A stretch of DNA of 64,000 bases from Candidatus Nomurabacteria bacterium (GCA_020631905.1 JACKGQ010000001.1:549854-613853); one strand, 5' to 3'. Counted from the first letter of the stretch, positions 44,086-50,113 are shown. A program made the numbers and translations. The notes: generated from the sequence alone by a model not told the origin.

Positions 44086-44159
44086 TGGCTCGGGGACAGG
44101 GATTCGAACCCCGGCTACTGGGACCAAAACCCAGCGTCCTACCACTAGACGATCCCCGA
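44086..44159 (-). tRNA. tRNA-Gln (anticodon UUG), CCA encoded
   Basis: Hand-folded cloverleaf: acceptor TCGGGGA/TCCCCGA, D-arm GTCT-AGTGGTA-GGAC, anticodon arm CTGGG-TTTTGGT-CCCAG (anticodon TTG), T-arm CGGGG-TTCGAAT-CCCTG, discriminator G, CCA. Confidence 0.9.
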
Positions 44160-47364: not shown

Positions 47365-48732
47365 CTAGACGTGCTTAAACCAGAGCTGACCCTGGGGGGT
47401 ATCTTTGATGCCGATACCCTCTTTCAACAAGTGATCACGTAGCTCGTCACTTTTTTGCCAGTCTTTGTTGTCGCGTGCTTTTCGACGTTGTTCGAGCATG
47501 AGTTTTTGAGCACTAGATATGTCTTCCGATGATAAATCTATGCCGAGCAAGTCGCTAATGCACGTTAGGCTGTCTTTTGCAGGTGCCCTACCGGCTTTTT
47601 CGACATCGTCAAAATAGACGTCGATGATAGCCAGGGCTTTTGGTGTGTCGAGGTCGTCGTCTAGGGCTGCCACAATATCTTCTGATATGTCTTTGTCGTA
47701 TCCTGGTAATTGCCAAGATCTGTCGGCGACAGCTTGCCAGTTGTTTAGCCGATTTTGAGCAGCTTCTAAGATTGTCCAAGTAAAATTGCCCTCTGTCCGA
47801 TAATGCTTGCTTAAGATGAGCAACTTGAAAGCTTGCAGACTAAAACTCTTATCTAATATGTCCTGCAAGCTGTAAACATTACCAAGCGACTTAGACATCT
47901 TAGAATCATTAACTCGTAAATGGTTGTTATGTAGCCAGATTTGAGCAAACTGCTTACCCGTTAACGATTCTGTCTGGGCAATCTCGTTGGTATGGTGAAC
48001 CGGAATATGATCGACCCCACCAGCATGGATATCGATTTGATCGCCTAGGCCTTCGCGGGCAATTACCGAGCACTCTAAGTGCCAACCCGGGAAGCCTTTA
48101 CCCCACGGGCTGTCCCACTCCATGTCGCGTTTTTGATCTTCTGGCGAAAACTTCCAGACTGCAAAATCAGTAATGTTCTTTTTGCCTTCGACCGATACCC
48201 TAGCACCTGCTTCTAGTCCCGCAATATCTAACTTGGCTAATTTGCCGTAGTCTTTAAGTTTGGCTGTGTCAAAGTACAAGCCATCGCCAGGAATTTCATA
48301 AGTAAAGCCGGCTTTTTCTAGTTGTTTTACAAATTCGATTTGCTGGTCGATTAGGTTAGTGGCACGAATAAGTTTTGGTTGTTTGAGTCCAAGCAGTTCA
48401 TAACCTTCGTGGTCGGCAATTGCAATATATTTTTCGGCAACGTCCCAGGCGGTTAGACCCTCGCTGCGAGCGCCTTTTTCCATCTTATCTTCGCCGGCGT
48501 CATCGTCGCTAGTTAAGTGTCCAACATCCGTAATGTTTTGGACTCGATTGACCTGCAAGCCATGGTGCCCGAGTAGTCTAGTAAGCACATCCCAATAGAT
48601 ATAGCCAACCCAGTTACCAATGTGTGGTTGGCTATAAACGGTAAGACCACAGTTATAAAAACTCACTTGACCAGCTTTTAGCGGCTTGAGCTCGTCTTTT
48701 TGACGAGTAAGTGTGTTATATAGCTTAATCAT
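47365..48732 (-). CDS. cysS: Cysteinyl-tRNA synthetase
   Basis: 455 aa with the HIGN (HIGH-class) and KMSKSLGN motifs and a CysRS-like order. Confidence 0.95.
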   Translation of the reverse strand: MIKLYNTLTRQKDELKPLKAGQVSFYNCGLTVYSQPHIGNWVGYIYWDVLTRLLGHHGLQVNRVQNITDVGHLTSDDDAGEDKMEKGARSEGLTAWDVAEKYIAIADHEGYELLGLKQPKLIRATNLIDQQIEFVKQLEKAGFTYEIPGDGLYFDTAKLKDYGKLAKLDIAGLEAGARVSVEGKKNITDFAVWKFSPEDQKRDMEWDSPWGKGFPGWHLECSVIAREGLGDQIDIHAGGVDHIPVHHTNEIAQTESLTGKQFAQIWLHNNHLRVNDSKMSKSLGNVYSLQDILDKSFSLQAFKLLILSKHYRTEGNFTWTILEAAQNRLNNWQAVADRSWQLPGYDKDISEDIVAALDDDLDTPKALAIIDVYFDDVEKAGRAPAKDSLTCISDLLGIDLSSEDISSAQKLMLEQRRKARDNKDWQKSDELRDHLLKEGIGIKDTPQGQLWFKHV

Positions 48733-48734
48733 TA

Positions 48735-49080
48735 CAGTAATAATACCCTACCTTTAGACTCATCTCAATTAAGTCTACGGGTAGGGTGGCAGACGGAGTC
48801 CAGCGCACCCGTTTGGTTGGTCTCTTCGGTTGTCAGTCTGCTCCAAAGACGTTACGGCACCAGTAGCTACCTCTCAGTTTCATGAGCAGCGTTCTGCCGT
48901 ATAAGACACCTTCGTATTTGAAACCCTTGGGTTTCTCCTTCCCTACGTGTGACGATGCCTCTAATATTGCACCACGTTCTGTGCTCTGGTAGTGCTTCGG
49001 GCCCTTGCGGTGGCGCCGGTAGCGATGCATTTCAGACTCCTGTCTGCCTCCGGAGCCTGCTAAAGTGCTCCAGACTAAAA
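48735..49080 (-). promoter_or_regulatory. Highly structured, unclassified 5' leader / ncRNA upstream of cysS, with terminator-antiterminator potential
   Basis: Minus sense:
- 5' hairpin 49050-49056/49067-49073;
- 13-bp closing helix with one bulged A (49035-49048 pairing with 48788-48800) enclosing about 230 nt rich in local hairpins;
- directly followed by a 13-bp interrupted hairpin (48746-48786) and UAUUAUU, 14 nt before the cysS ATG;
- GGGUG (48806-48810) can alternatively pair with CACCC (48784-48788). Confidence 0.45.
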
Positions 49081-49090
49081 GAGTATACCG

Positions 49091-50113
49091 CTAGAGGTAG
49101 TTGATTAAAAGCTCATGCGTTTTGCGGAGAACATCATTTTTAACCGTGTCGAAATCGAGTTCGGCGCCTTCGAATTTTATACCGCTGGCATAAGTATGAC
49201 CACCGCCACCAAAAGCCTCGGCCAAGTCTTGGCCAACCGGCGCGCTGCGATCGCAACGGATGCGCACCGTAACTCTGACTAACCTGCCCTCCTGCATGTA
49301 CTGCTTAAAACCTAGGGTTACTTTAACCCCCTCGACCATACGTAACTCGTCGAGAATAATCGTTGGGTTGAACTTCATACTGTGTTCTTTAATCTCGTCG
49401 TGCGGTATAACAATGCTCGCAATTGTACCTTCATTGCTAAACTCGACACGCTGTAATAACTCGCCTTTATAGGGGACAAGCGCGCGGTTATATTTGAGGC
49501 TTTCAAGTCGTTTCTGGTGTAATTCGGCAAGGTCGACACCGTAGTCTACGAGTTCTGCCAGATCGCGCAGGACTTGAGAGTTACCTTTCATGGCGTCAGT
49601 TGTAAGACCGAGCGTATCACTTAAGATACTACTTGCAAGATAACTACTACTGGCTTGATCGATCTTCCAGCCAATCTGTTTAGCCAGGCGATAGATTACC
49701 TGTCCGGTTGAAACAGCTGTTTGATCGATGACACTAGCTGCTGCGTAACTAATAGTACTTTCGGTGGCATGGTGATCAATAATTATTAGAGGACGTTTTT
49801 CTAGATTAATCTGCTCGCGGTTTCGAAGGTTCTGTAGCAACGAATCACTTGCATTGTCTACCATGATTGCCAGATCGTAGTCACTGGCAAAAACATTCAA
49901 GACTCGATCCCAACCATCAAGGTGCCTAAGGTGATTAGGCATATCAATCGAACAGTATAGATATACATCTTTGCCCAGCTCACCTAATATCTGCTCGAGT
50001 GCTAAGCTACTAGCCAAACTGTCGCCATCTGGGTTATCGGCTTGTAGTACCACGATTTTTTGGGCAGATTTGATAAGTTGGTCGATGACTTGGAGTTGTT
50101 TATCCATTGGCAA
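49091..50113 (-). CDS. nrnA: DHH/DHHA1 phosphoesterase (NrnA-like oligoribonuclease / pAp phosphatase)
   Basis: 340 aa with the DNPDGDS, IIIDHH and GGGGHTYASG motifs. Confidence 0.8.
   Translation of the reverse strand: MPMDKQLQVIDQLIKSAQKIVVLQADNPDGDSLASSLALEQILGELGKDVYLYCSIDMPNHLRHLDGWDRVLNVFASDYDLAIMVDNASDSLLQNLRNREQINLEKRPLIIIDHHATESTISYAAASVIDQTAVSTGQVIYRLAKQIGWKIDQASSSYLASSILSDTLGLTTDAMKGNSQVLRDLAELVDYGVDLAELHQKRLESLKYNRALVPYKGELLQRVEFSNEGTIASIVIPHDEIKEHSMKFNPTIILDELRMVEGVKVTLGFKQYMQEGRLVRVTVRIRCDRSAPVGQDLAEAFGGGGHTYASGIKFEGAELDFDTVKNDVLRKTHELLINYL

Follow-up and report, generated by a model that had tools for sequence, protein, structure and literature searches.

Type I toxin genes usually carry an open reading frame (ORF) of under about 70 codons, and the toxin is hydrophobic and membrane-active in most families. 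Structural descriptors for finding their mRNAs are a 5' stem-loop, a 3' terminator stem-loop, sequestration of the Shine-Dalgarno sequence by an anti-Shine-Dalgarno sequence and a 5'-3' long-distance interaction (PMC8594479), and metastable hairpins have been described in aapA1 (PMC6733600). The element considered here is a 358-nt spacer (48733-49090) in a 64,000-nt stretch of DNA from Candidatus Nomurabacteria bacterium (GCA_020631905.1, JACKGQ010000001.1:549854-613853), the whole of which is referred to as the window. It lies on the minus strand between a gene for a DHH-family (nrnA-like) phosphoesterase and cysS, and it is an unusually long unannotated stretch for a tightly packed genome. 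A previous interpretation of the same DNA (the sequence-only reading) had proposed a novel cis-regulatory RNA controlling cysS, with cysteine, tRNA-Cys or a thiol as possible ligand; this proposal is not retained, the interior of the element being an ORF and close relatives lacking the element. On balance we lean towards an autonomous small-protein gene cassette whose mRNA would be translationally locked by a 5'-3' long-distance helix, and the copies look like an undescribed family of such self-locking genes in Saccharibacteria. By analogy, the element would work like a type I toxin mRNA, the best-known case of this kind of design, without being filed as one. A full-text literature search retrieved no type I-like modules in the candidate phyla radiation (CPR).

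Eight copies with one shared architecture were identified: the one in the window, those of the loci L061, L117, L204 (=L205), L207 and L208, and two in L214. The seven copies outside the window come from six other Saccharibacteria lineages. From the 5' end the order is a -10-like hexamer, a 5' hairpin, the invariant heptamer GGCAGAC, a purine-rich Shine-Dalgarno-like motif and the start codon. The hexamer, a consensus match, ends 28-33 nt before GGCAGAC in seven of the eight copies, and some copies also have a good -35 motif, the best promoter-like sites being TTGACA-17-TATAGT in L117 and TTGACT-17-TATAGT in L061. The Shine-Dalgarno-like motif is AGGAG, GGAG, GGAA, AGGU or GGGGG according to the copy, and the start codon lies 16-20 nt past the first G of GGCAGAC. 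In every copy it opens an ORF, 54-74 codons in length, whose stop codon lies 30-60 nt ahead of the strand GUCUGCC. Past the ORF the order is a segment named box 6 (consensus GGGUGNGC-N-GAC in all copies), a pyrimidine anti-Shine-Dalgarno motif (CUCC, UUCC, ACCU or GACCC), the invariant GUCUGCC-ACCC and a 3' hairpin, which is present in all copies with 16-18 bp and the base ACCCUACA/UGUAGGGU.

The interior between the two heptamers had been described as packed with local hairpins. This description did not survive comparison with shuffled sequences and with the other copies: the 220-nt interior folds no better than chance (z = -0.69 against dinucleotide-preserving shuffles), and the hairpins named in it are not conserved, the interiors of different copies being unalignable. 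What the copies have in common at this place is the ORF. When each copy is shuffled with its dinucleotides preserved, 5-10% of the shuffles contain an ORF of 50 codons or more that begins in the same 16-nt slot; multiplied over the eight copies, this chance is 1.8e-10. The ORFs of L204 and L207 encode proteins that are 50% identical (alignment score z = 26.7 against shuffles); their nucleotide differences are distributed as 28/19/47 over codon positions 1/2/3, and different codons are used for 21 of the 33 residues that are conserved, a pattern which argues for selection on the protein and not on the RNA fold. The ORF of the window scores +0.13 bits per codon against the window's own usage, and the other five frames score -0.19 to -0.42. 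Its score exceeds the 95th percentile for off-frame windows and falls slightly short of the 5th percentile for real genes.

The eight small proteins are basic and hydrophilic, with isoelectric points (pI) of 9.8-11.9, grand average of hydropathy (GRAVY) values of -0.36 to -1.22 and a maximal 19-residue hydropathy of at most 0.89; the product of the window has a predicted pI of 10.3 and lacks a hydrophobic segment. Except for the L204/L207 pair they are mutually unrelated. Their multiple alignment has no conserved column, and none of them matched Pfam, NCBIfam, PADLOC or PHROGs. The search of the window protein against 1.84 billion representative proteins returned itself and a spurious, repeat-summed match to a fibronectin type II protein. 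Its AlphaFold model, made of the ORF product alone, is not usable (predicted local distance difference test 59, predicted template modelling score 0.21). A likeness of the L204/L207 protein to ribosomal protein S21 was considered and was not borne out by Pfam or NCBIfam. In L117, L204 and L207 the DHH proteins are 82-86% identical and the cassette flanks can be aligned, whereas the ORF of L117 cannot be aligned with the other two, so that the cargo is either replaced or diverging far faster than its surroundings.

The whole region folds at -131.9 kcal/mol (z = -4.36 against shuffles), a value which is due to the terminal helices and not to the interior. The proposed structure, formed by the 5' hairpin, the long-distance helix (P1) and the 3' hairpin, was tested on an alignment of the 5' and 3' modules. 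With this structure 92.4% of the cells pair; the corresponding values are 84.2% for column shuffles and 32-41% when the partners are slid. Changes on both sides were found in 14 pairs, of which the 5' hairpin contributes 3 (out of 5) and the 3' hairpin 10 (out of 18). The interrupted 3' hairpin followed by UAUUAUU, as the sequence-only reading had placed it, is present and conserved. A U-G pair is retained in six of the eight 3' hairpins, which argues for a function on the sense RNA strand. The 13-bp helix with one bulged A from the same reading was likewise recovered and corresponds to P1, which belongs to the minimum-free-energy fold of all eight full transcripts in spite of their unrelated interiors and has a predicted duplex energy of -18.5 to -24.8 kcal/mol in every copy. 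Its 7-bp core, GGCAGAC/GUCUGCC, is invariant. The extension of the core varies and stays complementary (GGAG:CUCC, GGAA:UUCC, AGGU:ACCU and GGGUC:GACCC), the next position being U-A or A-U. In the window the Shine-Dalgarno-like AGGAG (49041-49037) lies inside the 5' strand of P1, 6 nt ahead of the AUG at 49030. According to these folds, what P1 hides is the ribosome-binding site of the internal ORF and nothing of cysS.

A second pairing is formed by box 6 with GUCUGCCACCC and comprises GGGUG:CACCC, GC:GC and GAC:GUC. It contains the pairing of GGGUG (48810-48806) with CACCC (48788-48784) reported before and is bigger than was described then. This pairing is almost invariant, with 93.7% of the cells paired, and only in L208 is it limited to GGGU:ACCC. 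The P1 fold is favoured over this alternative by 9.5-17.4 kcal/mol. In most copies the alternative fold leaves the anti-Shine-Dalgarno motif in a 5-nt loop. The invariance of GUCUGCC and ACCC would be explained by the two partners that each of them has, which makes compensatory change hard: the basal ACCC of the 3' hairpin doubles as the partner of box 6. In the window, L204 and L214a the Shine-Dalgarno motif is predicted to be more accessible while the RNA is nascent. The parts of the element in the window are listed in Table 1.

Table 1. Parts of the cassette and of the adjoining cysS start in the window
Feature	Position	Strand	Sequence and remarks
Cassette promoter-like site	49082..49110	-	TTTTAA (49110-49105), 17-nt spacer, TATACT (49087-49082); consensus match only
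5' terminal hairpin	49049..49074	-	UCUGGAGC ... GCUCCGGA; in 8/8 copies; 3/5 basal pairs changed on both sides
P1 5' strand (long-distance helix)	49035..49048	-	GGCAGAC-A-GGAGUC; GGCAGAC invariant in 8/8
Small ORF, 65 codons + UGA (48835-48833)	48833..49030	-	MHRYRRHRKGPKHYQSTERGAILEASSHVGKEKPKGFKYEGVLYGRTLLMKLRGSYWCRNVFGAD; ORF at same position in 8/8 copies
Box 6	48801..48810	-	GGGUGCGC(UG); imperfect copy of P1 5' strand; can pair locally with GUCUGCCACCC
P1 3' strand	48788..48800	-	Anti-Shine-Dalgarno GACUCC (48800-48795) + GUCUGCC (48794-48788)
3' hairpin	48745..48787	-	ACCCUACC..UAGACUUA / UGAGUCUA..GGUAGGGU, then UAUUAUU; covariance model R1 76.7 bits
cysS promoter-like site	48740..48768	-	TTGAGA (48768-48763), 17-nt spacer, TATTAT (48745-48740); consensus match only

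The proposed mechanism would be the following. The cassette promoter-like site, directly past the DHH stop codon (49093-49091), would start a transcript of ~330 nt containing a protective 5' hairpin, a 65-codon ORF encoding a small and highly basic product and a long 3' hairpin, the latter probably a terminator or 3' stabiliser of the cassette transcript. In the full-length RNA, GGCAGAC-AGGAGUC, which holds the Shine-Dalgarno motif, would pair with GACUCC-GUCUGCC ~240 nt downstream, past the stop codon, and the finished mRNA would be translationally locked by this pairing. In the weaker fold box 6 (GGGUGCGC..GAC) would mimic the 5' strand of P1 and capture GUCUGCCACCC locally, placing the anti-Shine-Dalgarno motif in or beside an apical loop and freeing the ribosome-binding site. 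The balance of the two folds would set the protein output, and the switch could take place in the course of transcription, following processing or by way of a trans-acting factor: the lock may be bypassed during transcription, when the Shine-Dalgarno motif is predicted to be more accessible in some copies, or undone by box 6 refolding, by processing or by a factor acting in trans. The protein may have a toxin-like role or be otherwise conditionally expressed. Such a role, of either kind, is suggested by analogy: the mRNA resembles those of type I toxins, one locus has a tandem copy, the element is distributed patchily, and its cargo is hypervariable.

Several points weigh against this mechanism and against a toxin-like role. 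The 7-bp core of P1 is invariant and shows no covariation, so that only the varying extension and the thermodynamic prediction speak for the helix. In the full-length RNA, Shine-Dalgarno accessibility is predicted to be clearly lost in only three of the eight copies. For an antisense RNA gene the only signs are weak promoter-like motifs, which match at 8-9 of 12 positions near the 3' hairpin in some copies, in a sequence which is AT-rich and palindromic. The coding status of the window ORF rests on the architecture and a weak codon signal, and its product is an orphan lacking homologues. None of the eight proteins has a membrane-type segment, unlike typical type I toxins. The constant genomic position upstream of cysS is partly an ascertainment effect, given that all loci but one were found by anchoring on cysS or DHH.

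A wider proposal, which we offer tentatively and hold to be rather doubtful, is that of an undescribed family of modular cassettes in Saccharibacteria. These would combine an invariant RNA chassis (the 5' hairpin, the 5'-3' helix hiding the ribosome-binding site, the decoy box undoing that helix and the 3' hairpin) with interchangeable and rapidly replaced small basic proteins. The family might be a CPR-specific analogue of type I toxin systems with soluble toxins, or one of conditionally released effectors.

The distribution of the element is patchy. Blastn and tblastx searches of the region against 83 cysS loci of other Saccharibacteria gave no match. The first homologue, L061 (metagenome-assembled genome HKST-UBA48), was recognised by eye: it has the 3' hairpin of the window with GUCUGCCACCC in front of it and, 220 nt further upstream, GGCAGAC, which also follows a hairpin. 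A metagenome scan with the motif was dominated by chance matches, the pattern being GC-rich, and L117 was the only real copy among the matches listed. L061 and L117 belong to a clade defined by their DHH proteins, and contigs from its members gave L204 (=L205), L207, L208 and L214. In L214 (1310-2010) two complete cassettes stand in tandem between DHH and cysS, with unrelated ORFs of 68 and 55 codons and a promoter-like box each, the second being TGTATAAT. The element was not found in L209/210, L211/212, L213, L215 and L216, all members of the same DHH clade, and it is missing in the three closest CysRS relatives, where DHH directly abuts cysS. A covariance model built from the 3' module (R1) recovers the eight known copies at 75-86 bits and gave no further match in the window (filters off) or in about 1.27 Mb of other loci. 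A scan of viral contigs for the element returned chance matches only. On conservation and covariation upstream of cysS, a check that the sequence-only reading had proposed, the results are that the terminal hairpins covary and that the element is missing from the closest relatives and has an unalignable interior.

Every copy of the cassette precedes cysS and shares its strand, including those at loci whose cysteinyl-tRNA synthetase (CysRS) is of a different type (32-36% identity). Promoter-like sites are present between cassette and cysS in all copies. That of the window has its TTGAGA in the loop of the 3' hairpin, and its TATTAT ends 7 nt before the cysS ATG (48732); L207 and L208 share the position of TATTAT and a TTG-type -35, and the remaining copies have TATACT-type boxes further downstream, ahead of cysS. 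In the window cysS lacks a Shine-Dalgarno motif at the normal distance. As far as can be judged from such motifs, this suggests that cysS is transcribed on its own, as a leaderless or nearly leaderless mRNA. Nothing ties the element to cysteine or tRNA-Cys. The UGGA tetranucleotide, previously pointed out as complementary to the end of tRNA-Cys, occurs in the window copy only, the other seven copies having at that place AUGA, CAGA, CCGA, CCGG, CAGG, CCGA and CCGA; the cassette ORFs contain 0-1 Cys codons each; and the pairing of GGGUG with CACCC opens just four of the 16 pairs of the 3' hairpin, all of them basal, which makes it a poor antiterminator. Of the aptamer and antiterminator logic proposed before, what stands is the pair of mutually exclusive pairings, conserved across copies; the aptamer is replaced by an ORF.

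In the gap between cassette and cysS of L207 (3916-3985) and L208 (3926-3990) a mini-ORF was observed, AUG AAA AGA/CGA UGU UGU CGC UAA (MKRCCR), in which the two loci differ by a synonymous Arg codon. The region of its stop codon (GCUAAUUC / GCUAACCU) can pair with GGAUUAGC / AGG(C)UUAGC, which contains the AGG immediately 5' of the cysS AUG, and UUC:GGA to CCU:AGG is a compensatory change. The hairpin of this region is predicted but weak (z about 0). By its sequence the mini-ORF is a candidate Cys-codon leader-peptide attenuator of cysS.

On the minus strand the gene order, as assigned by Pfam, is ybaB, recR, the DHH-family phosphoesterase gene (49091-50113), the element and cysS. The CysRS of the window (47365-48732, minus) has a 100% identical counterpart at NCBI from Candidatus Saccharibacteria bacterium, the group to which the source is assigned here, and the next relatives are at most 71% identical. 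The core of the cassette (48788-49048) has a GC content of 0.55, with 0.46-0.60 in the other copies and mostly 0.41-0.46 in the surrounding genome. The raised GC and the below-typical codon score of the ORF fit constraints of RNA structure and foreign origin alike. DHH adjoins cysS directly in 14 of the 62 loci holding both genes, and other genes intervene in 44 of the 62. The DHH-cysS junction is a variable spot, which in many Nanosynbacter-type genomes is filled by 0.9-2.6 kb with other ORFs (for example L008, L016, L024 and L059, about 2200-2860); in L216 (2118-2992) an 88-residue ORF and a 2-hydroxyacid dehydrogenase-like gene were found between DHH and cysS. In related Saccharibacteria the position after DHH is taken by one of two very different CysRS types, which share 32-36% identity over their N-terminal 221 residues: one is present in L117, L204, L207, L208 and L211 and the other in the window and L061. 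The latter locus combines the CysRS of the window type with a DHH of the other clade. The only Rfam or ARAGORN match in the window is a tRNA-Gln with anticodon UUG (44086-44159, minus).

A search of the region with cmscan against Rfam 15 gave no match at the gathering threshold, the sequence-only reading having likewise found no fit among the RNA families it compared by eye, and at E <= 10 it gave only a chance mir-10 match on the 3' hairpin and no T-box (RF00230). ARAGORN detected no transfer-messenger RNA (tmRNA). The RNA of ribonuclease P (RNase P) is recognised by a P4 pseudoknot, by CR-I and CR-V (ACAGAA..GGCUUA-like) boxes and by being a single essential conserved copy. Bacterial RNase P RNA was rejected as the identity of the element, which has no Rfam match and, by eye, no CR-I (GGAAAGUCC-like) box, is patchy and is duplicated in L214. 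RNase P, signal recognition particle (SRP) RNA, tmRNA, 6S RNA, retrons and group I/II introns, considered by eye, were rejected on the non-homologous interiors, the tandem copy and the ORF. As for features of mobile elements, inverted repeats are present, there is no flanking duplication, and the window of 64 kb holds one copy, with no further one in the roughly 1.9 Mb of loci covered.

Four other explanations were weighed. A riboswitch or T-box-like leader sensing a ligand or tRNA and controlling cysS by termination and antitermination, as in the sequence-only reading, would agree with the location on the same strand upstream of cysS, with the mutually exclusive pairings at the base of a terminator-like hairpin and with the strong structure of the whole region (z = -4.36). 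We give it almost no credence: there is no Rfam family even at E <= 10, the interior is more stable than shuffles in no way and has no conserved sequence or fold even among loci with 82-86% identical DHH, all eight copies have the ORF there, UGGA is confined to the window, the putative antiterminator opens 4 of 16 hairpin pairs only, and most relatives lack the element. Nearly as improbable is a structured RNA without coding function, be it a housekeeping RNA (for instance RNase P or SRP RNA in diverged form) or a new small RNA, in which the ORF would be accidental. Diverged RNase P RNAs that escape the standard models are documented in CPR bacteria (PMC8172020), and the element has a promoter-like site of its own and a terminal hairpin. 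This explanation is opposed by the non-homologous interiors, the tandem copies in one genome, the absence from most relatives, the chance product of 1.8e-10 for the maintenance of the ORF, the codon-position pattern of L204/L207, which indicates coding, and the lack of CR-I or CR-V type motifs and of an Rfam match. The idea of an independent non-coding RNA between nrnA and cysS, also raised before, is kept in so far as the element appears to be a unit of its own, the unit being read here as an mRNA and not as a non-coding RNA.

The other two explanations are somewhat less improbable. The ORF could be an upstream-ORF regulator, where the act of its translation governs read-through of the 3' hairpin or polarity into cysS, the cassette then being a cis-regulatory leader. 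All eight copies are upstream of cysS on the same strand (seven directly, and the first L214 copy ahead of the second), this position is held also with the very different CysRS type (32-36% identity), ORF sequences unrelated between copies are expected if only translation counts, and the U-poor tail of the 3' hairpin makes read-through plausible. We nevertheless consider it unlikely, since 0-1 Cys codons per ORF leave no cysteine sensing, the L204/L207 pair shows selection at the amino-acid level, every copy has promoter-like sites separating the cassette from cysS, two cassettes follow each other in L214, L207 and L208 have a separate Cys-Cys mini-leader past the cassette, relatives that are comparably diverged in CysRS or DHH have no cassette and still express cysS, and the constant position is partly due to ascertainment. 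Somewhat less probable still is a mobile or recombining cassette at the DNA level, with GGCAGAC...GTCTGCC as terminal inverted repeats or recombination sites (of the miniature inverted-repeat transposable element or integron-like kind) and RNA folding incidental. Perfect invariant 7-bp inverted repeats do bound a variable cargo, which is unrelated between lineages with 82-86% identical DHH, and the tandem array in L214, the patchy presence and the GC above the genome average point the same way. Against it, the 64 kb of the window have a single copy and the 3-kb flanks at about 90 further loci have none; there is no target-site duplication, no transposase or integrase nearby and no attC-like GTTRRRY core, and no copy was found in viral contigs; moreover, the helix extension is an exact Shine-Dalgarno/anti-Shine-Dalgarno pair at the right distance from the start codon, and the U-G wobble in six of the eight 3' hairpins would be a mismatch on the opposite strand.

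If the self-locking cassette is the right reading, one false riboswitch candidate is removed and a new family of self-locking small-protein genes is added to the CPR, in whose genomes small proteins are routinely overlooked. The element would also be a compact natural two-state translational lock, and the pattern GGCAGAC ... GGGUGNGC ... GUCUGCCACCC would give a search handle for further genes of this kind, with invariant boxes and hypervariable cargo. A long closing helix with a busy interior is insufficient to call an aptamer, and such interiors need to be checked for ORFs.

Compared with described systems, the element shares with the riboswitch and T-box leaders of aminoacyl-tRNA synthetase genes its location 5' of a synthetase gene and the mutually exclusive helices beside a terminator-like hairpin. 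Unlike them, it has no conserved sensor domain, specifier loop or conserved UGGN bulge, its interior is coding, and the ribosome-binding site under regulation would be that of the internal ORF and not that of cysS. Leader-peptide attenuators of the trp, his and erm type resemble it in having a short upstream ORF within alternative RNA pairings, whereas the cassette ORFs span 54-74 codons and lack any run of Cys codons, MKRCCR being separate from it in L207 and L208. The type I systems hok/Sok of the E. coli plasmid R1 and aapA1/IsoA1 of Helicobacter pylori differ in their toxins, which are short hydrophobic membrane peptides and not strongly basic, hydrophilic proteins of 54-74 residues, and in their antisense antitoxin RNA, for which only weak promoter-like matches were identified at the element; the cassette proteins also have no sequence similarity to a described toxin family or PADLOC model. 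The likeness to these systems is in the mRNA: a small ORF within 200-400 nt of extensively folded mRNA, stem-loops at the 5' end and, as a terminator, at the 3' end, both of which covary in the element, a Shine-Dalgarno sequence hidden over a 5'-3' long distance by an anti-Shine-Dalgarno sequence near the 3' end (predicted for the element), alternative local, metastable hairpins, and loci which are patchy and sometimes in tandem (PMC8594479, PMC6733600).

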